From contig CAWBMO010000006.1 in assembly GCA_963789965.1 (NCBI GenBank), positions 402,136 through 466,135 of the forward strand: DNA of 64,000 nucleotides. Direction: 5' to 3'. Below, piece after piece: positions 5,431 to 35,826 of the stretch; position 1 is the stretch's first letter, and each line of letters opens with the position of its first letter. Made by a program: the position numbers and the translations under genes. Under the pieces are notes generated by a model. That model saw nothing but the letters and a program-made list of their open reading frames with translations. It searched no databases and was not told where the DNA came from. Origin of the DNA: an uncultured Acidobacteriota bacterium (GTDB lineage: Bacteria > Acidobacteriota > Vicinamibacteria > Vicinamibacterales > CAVVIG01).

Positions 5431-7419
5431 ATGCCGAAGATCACGACAGGCCGCGCCTATGCCAACAACGAAGTCGCGTACGTCGCCTGGGACACCGACG
5501 GCCAGATTGCGGGTTGCCTTGGCTTCGAGGTGACGCGCGTCTATCTCAACGCCGACGGCACTGTCGCGCGGCGGCCGGATGGCAGCGAAGACCGGGTGAG
5601 CTGTGCATCGTGGGTGGCGTTCAAGGGCCAGAAGAATCCGAACTGGCTGGCGCAGGACACCGGCGTGTGGCCGGTGCAAAAGATGTCATGGCGCGATCTC
5701 ACTCTGCGGAAGAAGCGCGACGGCGCGACTCGCCGGCCTGACGAGGTGCGGGTGCGGTTCGAGATCCGGCCCGTCGGCGACCTCAGGCCGGGGCTCGCGC
5801 CTGTGCCCTCGAACGGCCGCGAGTTCGCCGACGTCGTCAAGCGGGACAAAAAGAACAGGCCGGTGAAGGATGTGAACGGGAAGCCGGTGATGCAACGCGT
5901 TCGCGCGTACGAGGGCAAGCCGCGGCCGCTGGGCTACCTTGCACCCGCCGTCGCCACCAACGACGTCATGGTCACCTCCAGACGCAAGCCCTTCCGGTCA
6001 ACGTTCACCAATGGCATCCTGGCGGCTCAATGGCTCAGAAACGTGCTGCTCGAGGACGGAGTCATCACCCCGAACGAGCTACTCAACAAGATCTCGAATC
6101 CCAACGATCCGCACCGCAAGTACCTGGCGGGCGACGTGCTCCCGCTGATTCACGAGCTCTTCAGCCGGAAGGGCGAGTTCTATTTGGGCCTGTACGAGTT
6201 GGAAGACAAGGAGCTGGAGGACGTCCTCGTTGTCAACGCCGGGCGGGTCCACGTGATTCTGTCGAACTCGGGCGTCGACAGTGCCGGGGTCTGGGACCGT
6301 AGGAACGAGCCCGCGCGCAAGCGGCTGATGAAGGCCAAGGTGGACCTCCAGCACCGGATGTTCAACAACAGTACGCACATCGGGCACAACAAGTTCGTTG
6401 TGCATGTACCGCCGGCCGGCGGCCCTCGCGCCGTGTTGACCGGGAGTACGAACTGGACGCAGACCGGAGTCGCAGGGCAGACCAACAACGCAATCCTGGT
6501 CGAGGACGACGCGATCGCGGGGATGTTTCTCGAGTACTGGAAACGCATGAAGGCCGACAAGCTGAAGATGCCAAAGCCTCGCGGCGCAGCCATGATCGCG
6601 AATCAGCAGGGGGCCAAGTTCCGCACGTCCAACGTGGTGCCGTGCAAGTTCCAGCTGACGGGTGGAGTCGCGATCGAGCTCTGGTGCTCACCGAACACCC
6701 AGCAACAGAGGAAGCCGACCTCGACAACCAAGCCGACACCCGTCCCACCCGACCTGACCGAAGTCTATCGCCGAATGCGACTCGCGGAGGAAGCCATTCT
6801 GTTCCTAGCGTTCTACCCCGGCCAGGCTGGCAACGACTGCATCATCGGCGAAGCCATCGAGATCGGCCGCAAGGACAAGACGCTCCTAGTGAGCGGCGCC
6901 GTGTCGAGCCCGCAGGCCATGCCGGAGTACAAGGCGAGTAAGAAAGATCCAAGGACCAAAAAGGTCATCGAGAAGGGGAATTCACCCGTTACGTACGAAA
7001 GAGACAACGTAATGGTCGTACGTGCCGCGGCGATTGACGATCGCAACATCCTGGGGGACTTTGGCCTCGAGCAGCTCGCCGCCAAGAAAACCGGCGCGAT
7101 CATCCATGACAAACTGGTGGTCATCGATCCTCGCTCGGAGAACTGCTCGGTGATTCTCGGGAGCCACAATCTCGGTTTCAAGGCCTCGTACTCAAACGAC
7201 GAGAATTTCCTGATAATTTCCGGCCATCAGGAATTGGCCGCCGCGTACGCCGTCCACATTCTCGACGTCTACGAACACTACCGCTTTCGTGCGATCCAGA
7301 CCGAGCGGGCGCGACAGGGAAAGAAGAAATGGTCCGGGTACTTGGACGCCGACGATCGGTGGCAGAATGGGTACGTCGATCACTCCAAGGGGGCGATCGC
7401 CCGGTATTTCGCGCGCTAG
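5431..7419 (+). CDS. Phospholipase D-family protein with two HKD motifs and a ~300-aa unknown N-terminal region
   Basis: HKD motif 1 is HNKFVVH...GSTNWT and motif 2 is HDKLVVID...GSHNLG. GGAGG-like sequence (gaaggagggg) lies upstream of ATG 5431. Confidence 0.85.
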   Translation: MPKITTGRAYANNEVAYVAWDTDGQIAGCLGFEVTRVYLNADGTVARRPDGSEDRVSCASWVAFKGQKNPNWLAQDTGVWPVQKMSWRDLTLRKKRDGATRRPDEVRVRFEIRPVGDLRPGLAPVPSNGREFADVVKRDKKNRPVKDVNGKPVMQRVRAYEGKPRPLGYLAPAVATNDVMVTSRRKPFRSTFTNGILAAQWLRNVLLEDGVITPNELLNKISNPNDPHRKYLAGDVLPLIHELFSRKGEFYLGLYELEDKELEDVLVVNAGRVHVILSNSGVDSAGVWDRRNEPARKRLMKAKVDLQHRMFNNSTHIGHNKFVVHVPPAGGPRAVLTGSTNWTQTGVAGQTNNAILVEDDAIAGMFLEYWKRMKADKLKMPKPRGAAMIANQQGAKFRTSNVVPCKFQLTGGVAIELWCSPNTQQQRKPTSTTKPTPVPPDLTEVYRRMRLAEEAILFLAFYPGQAGNDCIIGEAIEIGRKDKTLLVSGAVSSPQAMPEYKASKKDPRTKKVIEKGNSPVTYERDNVMVVRAAAIDDRNILGDFGLEQLAAKKTGAIIHDKLVVIDPRSENCSVILGSHNLGFKASYSNDENFLIISGHQELAAAYAVHILDVYEHYRFRAIQTERARQGKKKWSGYLDADDRWQNGYVDHSKGAIARYFAR

Positions 7420-13211: not shown

Positions 13212-15839
13212 TTACTCGGCTCGCAGGACGGTCGCAGGGTCGACGCTACTCGCCCAAAGGGCAGGCAGGAACGAGGCGGTCAGCACAATTCCAGTAAGGA
13301 GCGCAGTCACCCCGACCAGGATCGTTGGCTCGCGGGGGCTGGTCTCAAACATGAGCGAGGCAAGGACCCTAGTCACCGTGAGCGATGCGACCAACCCGAT
13401 CGCACACCCCCAAGCCGCAAGACGGACACTCCGTCCAACCACCAACGCGAGCACGGCGTTGCGTGTCGCCCCAAGAGCGATCCGTATGCCCAATTCGCGT
13501 CGCCGACGCGCCACCCAGTAAGCAGCAGTCCCATAGACGCCAACGCCGGCCAGCAGGAGCGCCATTCCTGCAAAGGCCGACCCGAGCCGAAGGAAGAACC
13601 GAGGCCTCGCGACCGATTCGACAATTCGTTGCTCCATGGTCGTCGCTTCGATGATGGGGAGGCGAGCGTCAAGGGTCCACAGTCGCTCCTTGACTTGCCG
13701 CACAACGGCTGCTTCGTTTCCGCTGACTCGGACGATGAACGTGAAGAATCGGGCGCCCGTTCCTCGCTGGTACGGGAAGTACAGCTCCATGCCGTCGCCC
13801 ATCGGATCGTTCAGCCCCATCTGCTTCACATCCCTGGCGACGCCGACCACGGTGTGCCATGGCTGCTTTGCGTCCAGCCGGAATCGGCGCCCGACCGGCG
13901 ATTCGGTGCCCCAAAATCGGCGCGCGAGAAGATCATTCACGATCACCACGTCCTCGGAATCATCTCTCGCAAATGCGCGTCCCTCCACCAGAGGAATGCC
14001 CATCGTCGCAAAGTAGTCCGGCGCCACTCTCGAGTGCGGCAACTCGAGGCCCTGTGCATCGACGCTGGGCCGACCCTCGGCCTCAGGCCGGATGTCAAAC
14101 GAGAAGCTCCCTCCGGTTGGCGGAGCACCCTCGGAGAACGTGGCGCGACTCACACCAGGTCCTCCTTCGACAAGCCCATCCAGGTCCTCGAGCAACATAA
14201 GGGAGGAGCCAGGCGCCTGGTAGCGCGTATCGGGTAGCTGAATGGTAAAGACCAGCAGATTCGTTGGGTCGAAGCCAGGCTCGACATTGACAAGGCGAAT
14301 GAAGCTGCGGAGCAGCAGCCCCGCACCCGTCAGGAGCACCAACACCAAGGCCAGCTGCGCAATCACGAGAGTGGATTGCCACCGCTCGCTGCCTCGGTCA
14401 AGCGCACCAGGCTCTACGCCTCTGAGGCCCTGAATGGGATCGGTCCCCGCCATACGCAGAGCCGGAAGGATGCCGACCACCAGACATGTGATGATGGACA
14501 AGCACACGGCAAACGCCAACGCACGCCCGTCCAGCGTCGCGGCAGCCGAGAGCATGGTCATCTGCGGTGGAAGCAGATCCAGGATCGTCGCGAGGAGCAG
14601 GTGAGCGATCAGCACACCGCCCACACCGCCCAAGGCGGCAAGGCCGAGGCTCTCAGTCAGTGCTTGGGTGACAAGCTGGGCGCGGCTGGCGCCCAACGCT
14701 CCCATGAGCGCGAATTCACCTCGCCGGGCGGTTGCCCGAGCCAGAAGGAGATTGGTCACGTTCACGCAGGCGATGAGAAGTACGAAGCCGACGGCGCCCA
14801 GCATCACGTATAGCGCTGTGCGGTATTGACGGCCGTACCGGCGTTGAAGAAGGTCCTCGAAGACCAATTCACTATCACGGGTAAGGATCGCGTCATCCTG
14901 CAAGCGCGTCGAGATGGTTTTGAGCAGTGCGTTCGCAGCCTCTCGCCTCGTTTCGGGTCGAAGCATGACGACTGTTTGTACACGCCCGGAGGGACCCTGC
15001 ACCGCATTGAGAACGAGAGGACGCCACACTTCAACGCGTTGCTCGGGAAAAGCGAAGCGGGCTGGCAGGACGCCGACGATCACATGCGGCTCGTCGTCAA
15101 TCGAGAGCCGGCGGCCAATAATGTCGTCGGCCCGGCCAAATCGCCTCGTCCACAGGCCTTCACTGATGAGCGCCGCGTGTGCTCCTGAAGCCGCGTCGCC
15201 TTCATCAAACACGCGCCCGAGCCGAGGCACGACGCCCAATACTCGGAGGAGACCAGGAGACACTCGCGGAGCACTGACAAGGGCGGGCTCGCCGTCGCCC
15301 GTGAGCGTTGCGGCGCCGAACTGATAGGCCTCGACTTCCGAGAAGACTTGCGTCTCAGTGCGAAGCGCCTGGAAGGCTTGTCCGCTGAGGCGCGGAATCC
15401 TTTGCCGAGAAGGCGTTTGCTCTGTCCCCACCTCAAGGAGTCGATCCGAATCCGGGTACGGCAGCGGCCGAATCAGCAGGACGTCGACCACTCCGAACAC
15501 TGCCGTGGTCCCGCCAATACCGAGCGCAAGGGACAGGACGGCAACGGCGGTGAACACCGGCGATCGGCGCAGCTGCCGGAACGCGTAGAGGAGATTGCCG
15601 GTCACCTCGTCGAGCAGACGCAAGCCGAGCGCCTCACGCATCTCCTCTTTGCGCGCCTCGATGCCACCGAATTCGACGTGCGCGCGGCGTCTTGCTGCCG
15701 CGACCGGCAGTCCCTGACGTACGAGGTCGTCGGTATACCGCTCGACATGAAAGCGAAGCTCGTCGTCGATCTCCCGCTCCAACCGCGAGCGATGCAGCGC
15801 TGATCGGGCCCAGGAGCGCAGGCGCGCGACGAATTTCAT
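13212..15839 (-). CDS. ADOP-family (duplicated orphan permease) MacB-like ABC permease, copy A
   Basis: 875 aa. N-terminal 'permease prefix' MKFVARLRSWARSALHRSRLEREIDDELRFH, two MacB-periplasmic/FtsX modules, C-terminus DPATVLRAE. ATG overlaps the padR stop (ATGA). Confidence 0.9.
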   Translation of the reverse strand: MKFVARLRSWARSALHRSRLEREIDDELRFHVERYTDDLVRQGLPVAAARRRAHVEFGGIEARKEEMREALGLRLLDEVTGNLLYAFRQLRRSPVFTAVAVLSLALGIGGTTAVFGVVDVLLIRPLPYPDSDRLLEVGTEQTPSRQRIPRLSGQAFQALRTETQVFSEVEAYQFGAATLTGDGEPALVSAPRVSPGLLRVLGVVPRLGRVFDEGDAASGAHAALISEGLWTRRFGRADDIIGRRLSIDDEPHVIVGVLPARFAFPEQRVEVWRPLVLNAVQGPSGRVQTVVMLRPETRREAANALLKTISTRLQDDAILTRDSELVFEDLLQRRYGRQYRTALYVMLGAVGFVLLIACVNVTNLLLARATARRGEFALMGALGASRAQLVTQALTESLGLAALGGVGGVLIAHLLLATILDLLPPQMTMLSAAATLDGRALAFAVCLSIITCLVVGILPALRMAGTDPIQGLRGVEPGALDRGSERWQSTLVIAQLALVLVLLTGAGLLLRSFIRLVNVEPGFDPTNLLVFTIQLPDTRYQAPGSSLMLLEDLDGLVEGGPGVSRATFSEGAPPTGGSFSFDIRPEAEGRPSVDAQGLELPHSRVAPDYFATMGIPLVEGRAFARDDSEDVVIVNDLLARRFWGTESPVGRRFRLDAKQPWHTVVGVARDVKQMGLNDPMGDGMELYFPYQRGTGARFFTFIVRVSGNEAAVVRQVKERLWTLDARLPIIEATTMEQRIVESVARPRFFLRLGSAFAGMALLLAGVGVYGTAAYWVARRRRELGIRIALGATRNAVLALVVGRSVRLAAWGCAIGLVASLTVTRVLASLMFETSPREPTILVGVTALLTGIVLTASFLPALWASSVDPATVLRAE

Positions 15840-16177
15840 ACTTCCTCTGGTTGAGTACCGAGGATGCCGCCGATGATGTCGGTCATCTCATTCCAGGTCC
15901 GCGCCGCCTCTTGCAGCTGACGTCGTCCCGCAGGCGTGAGACGGTAAAACTTCGCTTTGCGCTTGTTGTCCGATTCGCCCCATTCACTCGCGATGAGGCC
16001 CTGATGCTCGAGCCGGTACAGTGCGGGATAGAGGGAGCCCTGCTGAATCTCCAGGCGATCGTTCGAAATCTGCTGAATCCTCAAGAGAATGCCGTAGCCG
16101 TGCAGCGCGCCGAGCGACACGGCTTTGAGAATCAGCATGTCGAGAGTGCCTTGAAAGAGATCGGCTGGCTTGCCCAC
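15836..16177 (-). CDS. padR: PadR-family transcriptional regulator, copy A
   Basis: LDMLILKAVSLGALHGYGI...GSLYPALYRLEHQGLI winged-helix PadR signature. GTG start at 16177 preceded by AGGAGGG. Confidence 0.9.
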   Translation of the reverse strand: MGKPADLFQGTLDMLILKAVSLGALHGYGILLRIQQISNDRLEIQQGSLYPALYRLEHQGLIASEWGESDNKRKAKFYRLTPAGRRQLQEAARTWNEMTDIIGGILGTQPEEV

Positions 16178-16186
16178 GCGCACCCT

Positions 16187-16238
16187 CCTAGATCGTCTAG
16201 GCGAACGGTAGCCCACCTCTCCTAGACAGTCAAGGAGA
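16187..16238 (-). promoter_or_regulatory. Putative PadR operator palindromes upstream of padR copy A
   Basis: CCTAGATCGTCTAGG (16187-16201) and TCTCCTAGACAGTCAAGGAGA (16218-16238). Both are conserved upstream of padR copy B. Confidence 0.4.
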
Positions 16239-18377: not shown

Positions 18378-18833
18378 CTAGTCCGGTGTCGGTTGCTCCA
18401 CGCGATCGATCACAAGGACTTCCACCGGACCTCGCTGCGATTGCAACCGAAGGCCGAGGTTTTCTTGCAGGACGGTGAAGATTGAAGGGCCATCTGGATC
18501 AATTGGTTGGCTGTCCGACGGGATTAGACGAGGTGGGGGTATCTGATCCGGCGTGTATCTCAGATCGACGTCAAAGTTACCAGCAAGACCAGTCTGATTG
18601 ATGACCGGGCGTCCCACTGTCTGGGATAGGGCCCTCGCCAATTGATCCATGCTGGCCCCGAGCGCAAACATTCGGCCTGGTAGGTTTCTGACGCTACACG
18701 TTATCAGCGGCGCATTAGGTGGGGGCGGAGGTCCGCCGATCGGAGCCTTTGCGCTTAGTGCGGCACAATCTGCGGCGGATTTGGCAAGGCCCCGACCAAT
18801 CTGAGTTCCTTCCGCTGAAAAGGAAGGCGACAA
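18378..18833 (-). pseudogene. TIGR03435-like (soil-associated) protein, C-terminal portion only
   Basis: VINQTGLAGNFDVDL...GPSIFTVLQENLGLRLQSQRGPVEVLVIDRVEQP matches my memory of the TIGR03435 C-terminus. The ORF is short (151 aa), with a non-homologous-looking N-terminus only 38 nt from the divergent padR. Confidence 0.5.
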
Positions 18834-18871
18834 TCTTGCGTTCGCGATGTTTCTTCTATATCATGGAGTAA

Positions 18872-19207
18872 ATGGGAAGCCGATTCTTCCTGGGCACTTT
18901 CGACCTGATGATTCTCTTGGCGCTCATGAGGCTGGGCGACTCCGCCTATGGCGTGCCGATCTCGAGAGAGATCGAAGAGACCAGCGGCCGGGTGGTGGCG
19001 CTAGCCACGTTATATGCCACGCTGACACGGCTGGAACAGAAGGGACTCGTCTCCTCCCAACTGGGTGAACCGACCGCTGAGCGCGGCGGCCGGGCGAAGC
19101 GGTATTTTCGCGTCACGGCCAAGGGCCTTCGCGAGGTCCGCGACGCGCAACGCGTGTTCACGTCGCTGTGGAGCGGTATCCCGAGGCTCAAAGGAGGTGT
19201 AGCGTGA
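18872..19207 (+). CDS. padR: PadR-family transcriptional regulator (third PadR in the window)
   Basis: FDLMILLALMRLGDSAYGVPI...LYATLTRLEQKGLV PadR signature. Confidence 0.85.
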   Translation: MGSRFFLGTFDLMILLALMRLGDSAYGVPISREIEETSGRVVALATLYATLTRLEQKGLVSSQLGEPTAERGGRAKRYFRVTAKGLREVRDAQRVFTSLWSGIPRLKGGVA

Positions 19208-20043
19208 CCGACGTTCGGCCCCCTGCGCTCGCGACCTGGCTTCTGAAGCACGCAGCCCGCGGGAACGACGCCCTCGTCGGCGACCTCCTCGAGGAACATC
19301 GTCGGGGACGATCCGTGGCCTGGTATTGGAGACAGGTGCTGATGGCCGTTGTCGTCACTCTTTCGAGAGAGGCCTTTCTGGTTCTTGGCGTCGTGGCCCT
19401 GTTTCTCATTGGCAGTCGGTTCTCCGTCCCGGGTGCACACGCCGACACACTGACACTCCTCGCGAGCCGGGCCGCAGGCACGCCGTTCGGTCTGCTCAGC
19501 ATTCTCACGGGAGGTCAACTCTCAGGGGTCACAGTCTTTGCGCTCGGCATCATGCCCTATGTCAGCGCGGCGCTCATCGTGCAGGCGTTTGCTCTCGCCT
19601 GGCGGTTGCTGAACCGCAACGCGAGGAAGCGGCGGGACGTGCCTGTCGTCGCCGTGACATGGTGCGTGGCGATTCTGCTGTGCGCGCTCCAGGCCATCGG
19701 ACTCGCACTGTTTCTGGAGCGCACGTCGGCGATCAATCAAGGACTGAGCATCGTCGCCAACCCGGGGGGAATGTTCCGGATGACGACACTCGTCACGCTC
19801 ATGGCCGGCACAACGAGCCTTATGCTCATCAGCGATCAGATCTCCAAGCGTCGCCTTGGCAACGGCATGTTGCTCGTGTTCGTTGCTGGAGTCGTCGCGG
19901 GTTTGTTTGGCACGCTCGTGCCGCTCCTAACGGGACAGATGGATCCGTGGGCCGTGCTGACATACGCAGCCCTGCACATCGCGATTGTCGGCATCGTGTC
20001 GCACGGTTATCGCCGCGAGATCGCGCCGGTCGAACCTGCGTAG
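19204..20043 (+). CDS. PadR-coupled membrane protein whose body is homologous to the N-terminal half (TM1-TM6) of SecY
   Basis: GTG 19204 overlaps the padR stop (GTGA). [17 protein letters not shown] resembles the SecY [16 protein letters not shown] block. [27 protein letters not shown] resembles [27 protein letters not shown]. The ORF stops just after the TM6 RREI position. Confidence 0.7.
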   Translation: [279 protein letters not shown]

Positions 20044-20479
20044 GGGCGAGCACTGTACGCAGGTGCCGTGAAGGCGGCCATGAGAGCCGCGGTGGACGCA
20101 CGTAACGCCCTGGAAAACGGCTGTCGCCGCGGTCAGGTGAAGACGCCTTACTCAAGAAGGCCTCTCGGTAAATCCGCAGCGGGATCGGACGCCCTCAAGG
20201 CCTGACTGATGCCAGCGGTGGCCGCGTGAGACCAAGCAGAACCAAGAAGCGCGGGACGCGGGCACCGACAGACCCGCCCTCCGCCTGCAGGTGGCCCTGT
20301 CACTGACCTTCTCTTCTCCCGCCCGTGTCCGCCCCACACAGCGTCCCTCATCCTCAACGCCTCTTGGCGAGCGCCGTTACAAGGCGTTCGCGGGGGCCGT
20401 CCATGCCGGTCCATGCGTGGTTGTGGTCCTGTCGGACATAGCGGACGAACCCTCCGATAGATAGAATCGCACTCCCAGT

Positions 20480-21725: not shown

Positions 21726-21743
21726 CTTACATTATGTAAGTCA
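21726..21743. repeat. CTTACATTATGTAAGTCA palindrome (second copy of the core of the 18139 element)
   Basis: Matches 18201-18218 at 17 of 18 positions, and the flanks (~15 nt each side) are also similar. It abuts the stop of the truncated transposase ORF. Confidence 0.6.
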
Positions 21744-22187
21744 AGTGCTGGGAAACCCACCAATCCAGGTGTCATCGATTTCGACATCTCCATACAGCGG
21801 CTCTCGCGCGGCATTGACCATTGCCCGGCGCAGCTTGTGGAGCATCATCCACGCGGTTTCGTAGCGGCGCAGGCCGAGCTGGCGTTGGAGCAAGAGCGCG
21901 GACACGCCGCGCTTGTCGGTCGTCATCAGATAGGCGGCCCAAAACCAGTGCGTCAGCGGGGTCTTCGTGTTGTGCAGCACCGTTCCGGCCGTCAGCGAGA
22001 CCTGATGCCGGCACCCGGCGCACTGCCACCGTCGATTCGCCACGGGGTACGCACGGCGGTGTGCGCAGCGCGGGCAACTGAAGCCCTCGGGCCAACGACA
22101 GGCGGCCAGGTACTGCTGGCAGGCCTCCTCGCTGGCAAATTGGCGTTGAAATTCGCGCACGTTCCTCGGAAACGGCGGGCGCGGCAC
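21741..22187 (-). mobile_element. IS1595-family transposase, N-terminal fragment (zinc-ribbon/HTH part only; DDE domain missing)
   Basis: FASEEACQQYLAACRWPEGFSCPRCAH...WQCAGCRHQVSLTAGTVLHNTKTPLTHWFWAAYL...VEIDDTWIGG is typical of the IS1595 N-terminus. The ORF ends 4 codons after WIGG. Confidence 0.8.
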
Positions 22188-32798: not shown

Positions 32799-32850
32799 TC
32801 TCCTTGACTGTCTAGGAGAGGTGCGATACCGTTCGCCTAGACGATCTAGG
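32799..32850 (+). promoter_or_regulatory. Putative PadR operator palindromes upstream of padR copy B
   Basis: TCTCCTTGACTGTCTAGGAGA (32799-32819) and CCTAGACGATCTAGG (32836-32850), just upstream of GGAGGG and GTG 32861. Confidence 0.4.
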
Positions 32851-32860
32851 AGGGCCGCAG

Positions 32861-33202
32861 GTGGGCAAGCCAGCCGACCTCTTTCAAGGCACGCTCGACA
32901 TGCTGATTCTCAAAGCCGTGTCGCTCGGCGCGTTGCACGGCTACGGCATTCTCTTAAGGATTCAGCAGATTTCGAACGATCGCCTGGAGATCCAGCAGGG
33001 CTCCCTCTATCCCGCACTGTACCGGCTCGAGCATCAGGGGCTCATCGCGAGTGAATGGGGCGAATCGGACAACAAGCGCAAAGCGAAGTTTTACCGTCTC
33101 ACGCCTGCGGGACGACGTCAGCTGCAAGAGTCGGCGCGGACCTGGAACGAGATGACCGACATCATCGGCGGCATCCTCGGTACTCAACCAGAGGAAGTGT
33201 GA
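32861..33202 (+). CDS. padR: PadR-family transcriptional regulator, copy B
   Basis: 113 aa, differing from copy A at one visible residue (QESARTW vs QEAARTW). Confidence 0.9.
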   Translation: MGKPADLFQGTLDMLILKAVSLGALHGYGILLRIQQISNDRLEIQQGSLYPALYRLEHQGLIASEWGESDNKRKAKFYRLTPAGRRQLQESARTWNEMTDIIGGILGTQPEEV

Positions 33203-35826
33203 GATTCCTCGCCCGGCTGCGCTCCTGGGCCCGATCAGCTCTGCATCGCTCGCGGTTGGAGCGGGAGATCGACGACGAGCTTCGCTTTCATGTCGAGCGA
33301 TATACCGACGATCTCGTTCGTCAGGGACTGACGGTCGCGGCAGCAAGACGCCGCGCGCACGTCGAATTCGGTGGCATCGAGGCGCGCAAAGAGGAGATGC
33401 GTGAGGCGCTCGGCTTGCGTCTGCTCGACGAGGTGACCGGCCATCTCCGCTACGCGTTCCGGCAGCTGCGCCGATCGCCGGCGTTCACCGCCGTTGCCGT
33501 CCTGTCCCTTGCGCTCGGTATTGGCGGGACCACAGCAGTCTTCGGAGTGGTCGACGTCCTGCTGATTCGGCCGCTGCCGTACCCGGATTCGGATCGACTC
33601 CTTGAGGTGGGGACAGAGCAAACGCCTTCTCGGCAGAGGGTTCCGCGCCTCAGCGGAGAAGCCTTCCAGGCGCTTCGCCATGAGACGCAGGTCTTCTCGG
33701 CAGTCGAGGCCTATCAGTTCGGCGCCGCAACGCTAACGGGCGACGGCGAGCCCGCCCTTGTCAGCGCTCCGCGAGTGTCTCCTGGTCTCCTCCGAGTGTT
33801 GGGCGTCGCGCCTCGGCTCGGACGCGTGTTTGATGAAGGCGACGCGGCTTCAGGAGCACACGCGGCGCTCATCAGTGAAGGCCTGTGGACGAGACGATTT
33901 GGCCGGGCCGACGACATTATTGGCCGCCGCCTCTCGATTGACGATGAGCCGCACGTGATCGTCGGCGTCCTGCCAGCCCGCTTCGCATTTCCGGAGCAAC
34001 GCGTTGAAGTATGGCGGCCTCTCATTCTCAATGCGGTGCAGGGTCTCCCCGGGCGTGTACAAACAGTCGTCATGCTTCGACCCGAGACGAGCCGAGAGGC
34101 TACGAACGCGCAGCTCAAAGCCATCTCGACGCGCTTGCAGGATGACGCGATCCTGTCCCGTAATACTGACCTGGTCTTCGAGGACCTTCTTCAGCGCCGG
34201 TACGGCCGTCAATACGGCACAGCGCTATACGTGATGCTGGGCGCCGTTGGCTTCGTACTTCTCGTCGCCTGTGTGAACGTAACCAATCTCCTCCTGGCTC
34301 GGGGGACTGCCCGTCGTGGTGAGTTCGCGCTCATGGGAGCGTTGGGTGCCAGCCGCGCCCAGCTTGTCGCCCAAGCACTGACTGAGAGCCTCGGCCTTGC
34401 CGCCTTGGCCGGTGTGGGCGGTGTGCTGATCGCTCACCTGCTCCTCGCGACGATCCTGGATCTGCTTCCACCGCAGATGACTATGCTCTCGGCCGCCGCG
34501 ATGCTGGACTGGCGTGCGTTGGCGTTTGCCGTGTGCGTGTCCACCATCACATGTCTGGCTGTCGGCATCCTTCCGGCTCTGCGCATGGCCGGGACGGATC
34601 CTATCGAGGGCCTCAGGGGGCAAGCGCCGGGCACTCTTGACCGAGGCGGCGAGCGGTGGCAATCCGCTCTCGTGGTGGCGCAGCTGGCCTTGGTGGTGGT
34701 GCTCCTGACGGGTGCGGGGCTGCTGCTGCGCAGCTTCATCCGCCTCGTCAACGTCGAGCCTGGCTTCGACGCGACGAATCTGCTGGTCTTTACGATTCAG
34801 CTACCCGATGCCCGCTACCAGGCGCCTGGCTCATCCCTCATGCTGTTCGAGGACCTGGATGGGCTCGTCGAAGGAGGACCTGGTGTGAGTCGCGCCACGT
34901 TCTCGGAGGGTGCTCCGCCAACCGGAGGGAGCTTCTCGTTTGACATCCGACCTGAGGCCGAGGGTCGGCCCCGCGTCGATGCACAGGGCCTCGAGTTGCC
35001 GCACTCGAGAGTGGCGCCGGACTACTTTGCGACGATGGGCATTCCTCTGGTGGAGGGACGCTCATTTGCGAGAGATGATTCCGAGGACGTGGTGATCGTG
35101 AATGATCTTCTCGCGCGCCGATTTTGGGGCACCGAATCCCCGGTCGGGCGCCGATTCCGCCTCGACGCAACGCAGCCATGGCACACCGTGGTTGGCGTGG
35201 CCAGAGATGTGAAGCAGATGGGGCTGAACGATCCGATGGGCGACGGCATGGAGCTGTACTTCCCGTACCAGCGACGAACGGGCGCCCGATTTTTTACGTT
35301 CATCGTCCGAGTCAGCGGAAACGAAGCAGCCGTCGTGCGGCAAGTCAAGGAGCGTCTGTGGACGCTTGACGCTCGCCTCCCCATCATCGAAGCGACGACC
35401 ATGGAGCAACGTATTGTCGAATCGGTCGCGAGGCCTCGGTTCTTCCTTCGGCTCGGGTCGGCCTTTGCAGGAATGGCGCTCCTGCTGGCCGGCGTTGGCG
35501 TCTATGGGACTGCTGCTTACTGGGTCGCGCGTCGGCGACGCGAACTCGGTATACGGATCGCTCTTGGGGCGACCCGCAAGGCCGTGCTCGCGTTGGTGGT
35601 TGGACGGAGTGTCCGTCTCGCGGTTTGGGGGTGTGCGATCGGGTTGGTCGCATCGCTCACGGTGACGAGGGTTCTTACTTCGCTCATGTTTGAGACCAGC
35701 CCTCGCGAGCCGACCATCCTGGTCGGGGTGACGGTGCTCCTCACAGGAATTGTGCTGACCGCCTCGTTCCTGCCTGCCCTTTGGGCGAGCAGCGTCGACC
35801 CTGCGACCGTATTGCGAGCCGAATAA
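33199..35826 (+). CDS. ADOP-family MacB-like ABC permease, copy B
   Basis: GTG 33199 overlaps the padR stop (GTGTGA). 875 aa with no indels and about 50 substitutions relative to copy A by eye. The track's longer ORF from 33055 overlaps padR and is rejected. Confidence 0.9.
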   Translation: MRFLARLRSWARSALHRSRLEREIDDELRFHVERYTDDLVRQGLTVAAARRRAHVEFGGIEARKEEMREALGLRLLDEVTGHLRYAFRQLRRSPAFTAVAVLSLALGIGGTTAVFGVVDVLLIRPLPYPDSDRLLEVGTEQTPSRQRVPRLSGEAFQALRHETQVFSAVEAYQFGAATLTGDGEPALVSAPRVSPGLLRVLGVAPRLGRVFDEGDAASGAHAALISEGLWTRRFGRADDIIGRRLSIDDEPHVIVGVLPARFAFPEQRVEVWRPLILNAVQGLPGRVQTVVMLRPETSREATNAQLKAISTRLQDDAILSRNTDLVFEDLLQRRYGRQYGTALYVMLGAVGFVLLVACVNVTNLLLARGTARRGEFALMGALGASRAQLVAQALTESLGLAALAGVGGVLIAHLLLATILDLLPPQMTMLSAAAMLDWRALAFAVCVSTITCLAVGILPALRMAGTDPIEGLRGQAPGTLDRGGERWQSALVVAQLALVVVLLTGAGLLLRSFIRLVNVEPGFDATNLLVFTIQLPDARYQAPGSSLMLFEDLDGLVEGGPGVSRATFSEGAPPTGGSFSFDIRPEAEGRPRVDAQGLELPHSRVAPDYFATMGIPLVEGRSFARDDSEDVVIVNDLLARRFWGTESPVGRRFRLDATQPWHTVVGVARDVKQMGLNDPMGDGMELYFPYQRRTGARFFTFIVRVSGNEAAVVRQVKERLWTLDARLPIIEATTMEQRIVESVARPRFFLRLGSAFAGMALLLAGVGVYGTAAYWVARRRRELGIRIALGATRKAVLALVVGRSVRLAVWGCAIGLVASLTVTRVLTSLMFETSPREPTILVGVTVLLTGIVLTASFLPALWASSVDPATVLRAE

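Follow-up and report, generated by a model that had tools for sequence, protein, structure and literature searches.

SecY is a universal and essential protein that is normally present as a single copy. Among the closest described arrangements at the regulatory level are the computationally described HAAS-PadR dyads, in which an N-terminal HAAS domain is fused to FtsX/MacB, FtsW/RodA or "uncharacterized 6TM, 4TM, 2TM" domains (TM, transmembrane helix), and for which a role in envelope stress and as a substitute for two-component systems in membrane signalling was proposed (Ravi et al., mSystems 2024, PMC11237479). In Listeria monocytogenes, the PadR repressor LstR mainly controls its own operon, which also encodes Lmo0421, an apparently non-functional homologue of RodA/FtsW (PMC6624303), and Acidobacteriota contain pairs of a PadR regulator and an ADOP permease (TIGR03433/TIGR03434). 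Here, a padR gene coupled to a gene for a truncated SecY (half-SecY) is described in a 64,000-nucleotide stretch (the window) of contig CAWBMO010000006.1 from an uncultured bacterium of that phylum. An initial inspection made from the DNA letters alone (the sequence-only reading) had proposed a half-translocon under a PadR-type repressor and knew of no described example; literature searches turned up no such architecture either, and a conserved free-standing N-terminal fragment of SecY appears, as far as the searchable literature shows, to be undescribed.

The similarity of half-SecY to SecY is well beyond chance, and its coverage is sharply bounded. Pfam PF00344 matches at E 1.5e-21 (77.5 bits against a gathering threshold of 32.2) over profile positions 1-147 of 306 only, and TIGR00967 matches at E 2.5e-26 (92.5 bits against a cutoff of 253.6) over positions 4-185 of 414 only. 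SecY chains in the PDB are matched at E 5e-30 to 1e-10 overall, with residues 58-266 aligned to residues 19-234 of Aquifex SecY (3dl8_G) at E 5e-30, and E. coli SecY is matched at E 1.4e-25. This last alignment reproduces the one made by eye in the sequence-only reading, with all three quoted motif pairs aligned identically. A lack of significance, which had been named there as a possible refutation, is excluded. Altogether, the protein consists of an N-terminal prefix followed by TM1-TM6, i.e., the N-terminal half of SecY plus the first helix of the C-terminal half. The chimeric nature suggested earlier is therefore correct, with a prefix of about 52 rather than about 45 residues, and the description as an N-terminal half holds in that only the N-terminal part is present, but it falls one helix short. 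The reading frame ends 8 residues past the G-x-R-R that follows TM6, in agreement with the stop noted earlier right after the equivalent of the RRIVV motif.

Compared with SecY/Sec61alpha, half-SecY shares the homologous TM1-TM6, the IGSxxxxPG motif, the plug, the FALGIxPYxSA motif of TM2b and the (S/G)(D/E)QI(S/T)xRxIGNG loop-TM5 motif, as well as the predicted fold and topology. It differs in lacking TM7-TM10 and the C4-C6 loops, which hold the docking sites for the ribosome and SecA, and, truncated after TM6, it offers neither the full 10-TM, two-half clamshell nor the C4/C5 docking loops. It also adds a PadR-partner prefix, replaces otherwise invariant residues together with the C2-loop motif (KEGExGRRKITQYTRY in canonical SecY) and sits outside the ribosomal-protein operon, the spc setting from rplO to adk being absent at this locus. 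A hidden Markov model built from 75 canonical C-terminal halves matched no reading frame at E<=10, either in the window or in 12 related loci, which extends the earlier observation that no TM7-10 equivalent follows downstream. Because TM7-10 and the C4-C6 loops are absent and the C2 loop is altered, half-SecY cannot by itself be a translocon.

Structure prediction is in line with this assignment. The AlphaFold2 model of half-SecY alone, obtained with a 50-sequence family alignment (predicted local distance difference test score, pLDDT, 74.6; predicted template modelling score, pTM, 0.67), contains ten helices, among which two short ones at the N-terminus are followed by a long one shared by the prefix and TM1 and, beyond a low-confidence plug region, by five more long helices; three helices are predicted for the prefix. 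A Foldseek comparison of this model with the PDB returned SecY/Sec61 chains only at E<=0.001, with a TM-score of 0.53 on the query. Furthermore, lysine and arginine counts in the family (17.9 on the cytoplasmic against 4.9 on the periplasmic side) reveal a strong positive-inside bias and therefore one fixed, SecY-like orientation, so that an antiparallel homodimer is excluded.

The truncated form is not unique to this genome. A family search covering 5.8 billion proteins yielded about 105 half-SecY clusters at 90% identity, with lengths of 264-323 amino acids, from many samples and ranging from 100% down to about 40% identity to the window protein; beyond them, the match list drops sharply to full-length SecYs of 428-468 amino acids at E 1e-30 and weaker. 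Conserved padR-half-secY pairs were recovered in relatives, among them two loci at 41-42% protein identity (L002, L004) and one at 77% (L003), each with a padR of 109-111 amino acids, a 4-nucleotide ATGA overlap and half-SecY, followed by downstream genes that are unrelated to one another. A padR orthologue lies upstream of every intact half-SecY gene examined, and a GGAGG-like sequence precedes the ATGA/GTGA junction by 6-7 nucleotides in 11 family loci, the junction being ATGA in the other family loci and, as first reported in the sequence-only reading, GTGA in the window copy. The regulator called there by inspection passes the family threshold of Pfam PF03551 (E 1.5e-11, 44.6 bits against a cutoff of 27) and matches TIGR03433 padR_acidobact at E 1e-13, under the cutoff of that model.

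Pairwise ratios of non-synonymous to synonymous substitution rates (dN/dS, Nei-Gojobori) of 0.21-0.34 overall, 0.10-0.40 for the prefix and 0.21-0.38 for the SecY part indicate purifying selection. When 50 family members and 76 canonical SecY N-parts were placed in one neighbour-joining tree, the half-SecY family was monophyletic in 100 of 100 bootstraps, and its closest canonical SecYs, among the matches listed and in the tree set, belong to Vicinamibacterales and other Acidobacteria; the family has a single origin, from an acidobacterial secY. At 0.81, the distance within the family is larger than the 0.57 obtained for canonical SecYs from many phyla, and by this measure half-SecY is evolving much faster than canonical SecY. 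Several residues invariant in the 76 canonical sequences are replaced by near-invariant family residues (R153W, T156A, G210S, E211D, I226F), and S223 has become F or L; position 226 is presumably the equivalent of the pore-ring residue I191 in E. coli numbering. TM2b, TM3, TM4 and the C3 loop, with a mean column identity of 0.75-0.81, are, along with the prefix, the best conserved segments, and TM6 and the C-terminal tail are the least conserved. Taken together, family conservation, dN/dS, monophyly, family-specific residues and orientation bias indicate that an acidobacterial secY was probably duplicated, cut in the C4 loop, joined to the prefix and neofunctionalised.

At least one copy of the module is in decay. 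In one metagenome locus (L001; ENA ERZ25039504 contig_27387, 963 kb, positions 5800-6800), only the last ~70 nucleotides of padR are left, an unrelated Ank-like gene stands in place of the padR promoter, and a 1-nucleotide frameshift splits the prefix; an intact orthologue exists elsewhere (L087/P0123). The frameshift could be an error of long-read assembly, which the padR deletion cannot be, and individual module copies can therefore decay. As regards canonical genes, one locus (L086) displays the canonical secY operon arrangement and serves as an example for comparison, and a candidate for the canonical SecY of the same genome (P0107) was rejected on account of its identity of only 55-58% to any of the compared SecYs and its Nitrospirae-like best matches; it, too, is used here only to illustrate the canonical operon.

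The defining element of the system is the prefix, which the sequence-only reading did not recognise as such. Its consensus in the half-SecY family is MTxxxPPxLATWLLxHxxxxNxALxGDLLEEYxRGRSxxWYWRQVL, with P7, L24, G26, D27, E30, W40, W42 and Q44 invariant. A prefix-only profile searched against 1.84 billion representatives, with matches clustered at 50% identity, retrieved 3,096 clusters at E<=1e-3, of which 1,590 reach E<=1e-10. Most of the prefix-bearing proteins are multi-TM proteins of about 200-225 amino acids with neither SecY similarity nor a Pfam family, and the matches also include one 701-amino-acid protein and one tandem fusion. In 80 metagenome loci collected by the prefix alone, a padR homologue lies directly upstream in 79 (E 1e-30 to 1e-63 for almost all), the sole exception beginning at a contig end, and a SecY fragment is present in only 7; across the wider class, 60 of 85 prefix genes overlap the padR stop by 4 nucleotides. 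These proteins thus show a class of PadR-coupled partners that, to judge from their sequences, swaps membrane domains like cassettes. Some loci (among L100, L113, L124, L152 and L164) carry two tandem prefix-TM genes behind one padR, and one 410-amino-acid protein (P0124) consists of two prefix-4TM units fused head to tail.

Since the prefix is a widespread PadR-partner module, the locus belongs to an already described kind of system and is not a one-off invention: as far as sequence can tell, it is a variant of the large PadR/prefix membrane-protein class with a SecY fragment as the membrane domain, to be placed with PadR/HAAS-like dyads. With the HAAS-PadR dyads it shares a stand-alone padR followed by a membrane protein with a small helical cytoplasmic N-terminal domain and several TMs; SecY is not among the partners listed for these dyads in PMC11237479 or its supplement. 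With the PadR-ADOP pairs, two of which occur in the window, it shares the genomic idiom and the phylum. The prefix gives recurrent sub-threshold matches to perm_prefix_2 (NCBIfam NF038404), which 36 of 50 half-SecY family members reach at E<=0.1 (best 2.4e-4) and other prefix-class proteins at 19.5-31.1 bits (E 9e-4 to 2e-7), all below the 35-bit cutoff. The locus differs from the PadR-ADOP pairs in a SecY-derived rather than MacB/FtsX membrane domain, and the prefix shows no similarity to perm_prefix_1 of the window ADOP (hhalign probability 0.8%); a jackhmmer search for ADOP prefixes among the collected loci found the two window copies only. The LstR-Lmo0421 pair likewise combines a PadR with a non-canonical homologue of an essential membrane machine in its own operon, but it concerns another phylum and another machine, and Lmo0421 is full-length whereas half-SecY is truncated.

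Two further systems resemble half-SecY through its SecY part. The accessory SecY2 (TIGR02920) is also a second, diverged SecY paralogue, yet it has the full length with 10 TM, and its linked genes encode SecA2, Asp and glycosyltransferases; its model matches half-SecY weakly (E 9e-11, 41 bits against a cutoff of 249.6), and no Sec gene, SecA2 and Asp included, is linked to the module in the window. The postulated proto-SecY/YidC-like half (Lewis & Hegde 2021, PMC8675477) is, similarly, a free-standing unit of about one SecY half, but half-SecY is derived from a modern acidobacterial SecY, with six helices, a fixed topology and a regulatory prefix, and is not ancestral.

The region upstream of padR offers a plausible basis for autoregulation. 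When 73 related loci were aligned on the padR ATG and the 45 nucleotides upstream were compared, they revealed a common promoter overlapped by an inverted repeat with the class consensus ATTTcTTC-N9-GAAgAAAT (ATTTCTTC-N9-GAAGAAAT), in which the -10 box lies at the centre and the right arm reaches the start codon. The arms are complementary at at least 6 of 8 positions in 63 of the 73 loci; a shifted control gave 4 of 73. Since the -10 box ends 7 nucleotides before the ATG, the padR mRNA is probably leaderless or nearly so, and the inverted repeat would be the operator through which PadR regulates its own leaderless promoter. If, as this implies, thousands of paralogous modules have almost the same operator, they may cross-regulate one another. 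A generic sigma-70 and terminator scan did not call the padR promoter in the window. Just upstream of the -35 box, a hairpin-capable repeat (TTCCTTCC-GCTGAAAA-GGAAGG, 18806-18827) sits within the 5' end of the divergent reading frame of a DUF3738 fragment.

These observations can be combined into a working model, to which we assign a probability of roughly 0.5, in which the locus is an autoregulated PadR/prefix membrane signalling or response module with a neofunctionalised SecY TM1-TM6 in place of the usual membrane domain. A PadR dimer would bind the inverted repeat over the -10 box and the leaderless start and thereby repress the bicistronic operon; the second gene would be translated by coupling through its GGAGG and the GTGA overlap, and its product would insert with a SecY-like N-in topology. 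The conserved cytoplasmic prefix, continuous with TM1, would contact PadR, and the SecY-derived bundle, in which the plug, the lateral-gate side with TM2b/TM3 and the TM4-C3-TM5 core are retained, would act as the input domain. The cue sensed by the bundle may be something in the membrane, for instance a hydrophobic peptide or compound, or else the condition of the Sec machinery, and the response of the bundle would alter the hold of the prefix on PadR and change operon expression. Half-SecY would accordingly most likely be a membrane sensor or anti-repressor partner of PadR.

Several points weigh against this model. HAAS family membership proper is not supported by the tests run: the HAAS-defining Pfam models DUF1700, DUF1129 and DUF1048 gave no match at E<=1 in the window protein or at E<=0.1 in ten class members, the conserved GxP kink in helix 3 of that domain is absent from the prefix alignment, and a search of PDB sequences with the prefix profile gave chance matches to designed coiled coils only and no 2O3L. 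The window copy of the operator is degenerate (5 of 8 positions complementary), and the motif occurs once in the 64 kb. Moreover, where the sensor itself is the only visible product under regulation, it is hard to see an output unless PadR acts on other targets as well, and the membrane domain could equally be an effector.

In the latter case, half-SecY would be a PadR-controlled, stress-induced Sec modulator or decoy that titrates SecE, SecG, YidC, signal peptides or SecY-targeting toxins or inhibitors, which is conceivable but, on balance, doubtful. TM1, TM5 and TM6, which contact SecE in canonical SecY, are all retained, together with the plug and with TM2b and TM3, both among the best conserved segments, and LstR likewise controls a non-canonical paralogue of an essential membrane machine. 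Defective E. coli SecY variants are also dominant-negative through SecE sequestration, a point that a literature search did not confirm. Yet the same padR-prefix cassette is combined with many unrelated membrane domains, and a generic role is therefore favoured over a Sec-specific one; TM1, the C2 loop and TM5 have exchanged canonical invariant residues, so that partner interfaces may be lost, and no Sec gene is linked to the module in the window or the related loci examined. A further reading, which may apply to a sensor as well as to a decoy, would make the SecY fragment a target-mimic receptor, in analogy to BlaR1, which senses beta-lactams via a PBP-like domain. Its non-translocating plug/TM2b/TM3 copy would present the lateral-gate and plug surface to the lipid, catch signal-peptide-like peptides or natural products that attack SecY, as Sec61 inhibitors bind a lateral-gate/plug pocket (bioRxiv 10.1101/2022.08.11.503542), and then, through the prefix, release PadR or simply absorb the compound. 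This explanation is unlikely at present.

Readings in which the fragment itself works on membranes or substrates fare worse. A stand-alone half-channel, with a hydrophilic groove open to lipid that serves as an insertase of the YidC/Oxa1 type or as a membrane-thinning device, would recall the postulated kinship of proto-SecY with YidC and would suit both the Oxa1/YidC fold of SecY halves (PMC8675477) and the stable maintenance of the family without a linked partner. Residues that line the pore have shifted towards greater hydrophobicity (S223 to F/L, I226 to F), which suggests a groove that is buried and not used, the fixed topology rules out an antiparallel homodimer that would rebuild a channel, and there is no ribosome-docking element, so that this reading is quite improbable. 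A split translocon, in which a C-terminal half (TM7-10) encoded separately elsewhere pairs with half-SecY into an alternative, PadR-regulated SecY channel, is very unlikely. SecY can be divided in the C4 loop, as OmpT cleavage and split-SecY work demonstrate, and the truncation falls exactly at the start of C4; against this stand the lack of C-half similarity in the window and 12 family loci, the variation of downstream genes between loci and the divergence of those N-half residues that face the C-half. Finally, a non-functional remnant or artefact, whether a truncated secY duplicate captured next to padR, in line with the gene-remnant option of the sequence-only reading, or a frameshifted or misassembled full-length gene, could invoke the decayed copy with its lost padR and frameshifted prefix and the DUF3738 and IS1595 pieces next to the window module. 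It is hardly credible given the same length and stop position in more than 100 clusters, dN/dS of 0.2-0.34, monophyly, family-specific invariants and a conserved Shine-Dalgarno sequence and 4-nucleotide junction, and these comparative data are taken to refute it for the half-SecY family as a whole.

With respect to significance, the family suggests that the N-half plus TM6 of SecY can be maintained as an independent folding unit, and that part of the translocon can be recruited as a module on a membrane protein coupled to a transcription factor; it would also offer the SecY field a handy minimal construct. Beyond SecY, the prefix delineates more than 3,000 clusters (at 50% identity) of uncharacterised PadR-coupled membrane proteins with what appears to be a common leaderless promoter and operator. 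Should the SecY fragment indeed sense or buffer secretion stress or translocon-targeting compounds, protein export in soil Acidobacteriota would gain a new regulatory connection, and the target-mimic explanation, if true, would provide the first natural proof of a SecY half folding and being kept alone.

Table 1. Features of the padR-half-SecY locus and its immediate neighbours (window coordinates; a dot marks features without strand).
Feature	Position	Strand	Remarks
DUF3738 C-terminal fragment	18378-18833	-	profile positions 102-190 of 190 only
-35-like hexamer TTGCGT	18836-18841	+	class TTGCAa, column identity at least 80% in 73 loci; 17 nt from -10
Putative PadR operator, inverted repeat GTTTCTTC-N9-GAGTAAAT	18849-18873	.	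spans -10 box and first two bases of the ATG
-10-like hexamer TATCAT	18859-18864	+	class consensus TATTaT; ends 7 nt before padR ATG
padR	18872-19207	+	111 aa, short PadR-type winged-helix repressor; Pfam PF03551 match
Shine-Dalgarno GGAGG of second gene	19193-19197	+	within last padR codons, 6 nt before GTG
GTGA start/stop overlap (translational coupling)	19204-19207	+	padR TGA 19205-19207, GTG start 19204-19206
Prefix-half-SecY gene	19204-20043	+	279 aa; identical to public protein P0001
N-terminal cytoplasmic prefix, aa 1-52	19204-19359	+	PadR-partner module
SecY-derived membrane domain, aa 53-273	19360-20022	+	TM1, plug region, TM2b, TM3, TM4, TM5, TM6
Short cytoplasmic tail after conserved SHGYRR motif, then stop	20023-20043	+	truncation point at start of SecY C4 loop
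Non-coding spacer	20044-20479	.	downstream of half-SecY gene; no SecY C-half remnant, no Rfam family
PIN_12-domain protein, 385 aa	20480-21637	+	neighbour of module
Truncated IS1595 transposase zinc-ribbon ORF (open reading frame)	21741-22187	-	neighbour of module

The neighbours of the module, which also include a HAD hydrolase gene, are unrelated to it, and the DUF3738 and IS1595 pieces are signs of a rearranged, remnant-rich neighbourhood. PADLOC models matched neither PadR nor half-SecY nor the PIN_12 neighbour, and Rfam and tRNA scans found nothing in the window. The G+C content of the window is 63%, and the base composition at the locus is without anomaly or any sign of a compositional island. 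Families typical of acidobacteria (ADOP, TIGR03434; DUF3738; TIGR03433 below its cutoff), along with the Vicinamibacterales affinity of the closest canonical SecYs among the matches listed, point to a genome of Acidobacteriota.

DUF3738 genes also occur on the contig of the 42%-identical half-SecY module (L004; 9458-10626 and 7175-12615), which carries three of them and a second PadR gene that overlaps a 290-amino-acid gene without a Pfam family. Elsewhere in the window, the two PadR-ADOP permease pairs (13212-16216, minus strand; 32816-35826, plus strand) lie in inverted orientation; the window ADOP matches TIGR03434 at 782 bits and carries perm_prefix_1 (NF038403). The pairs are 94.6% identical in DNA over 3,043 nucleotides (94% in protein), and therefore reflect a recent segmental duplication of about 3 kb, with the copies about 17 kb apart.

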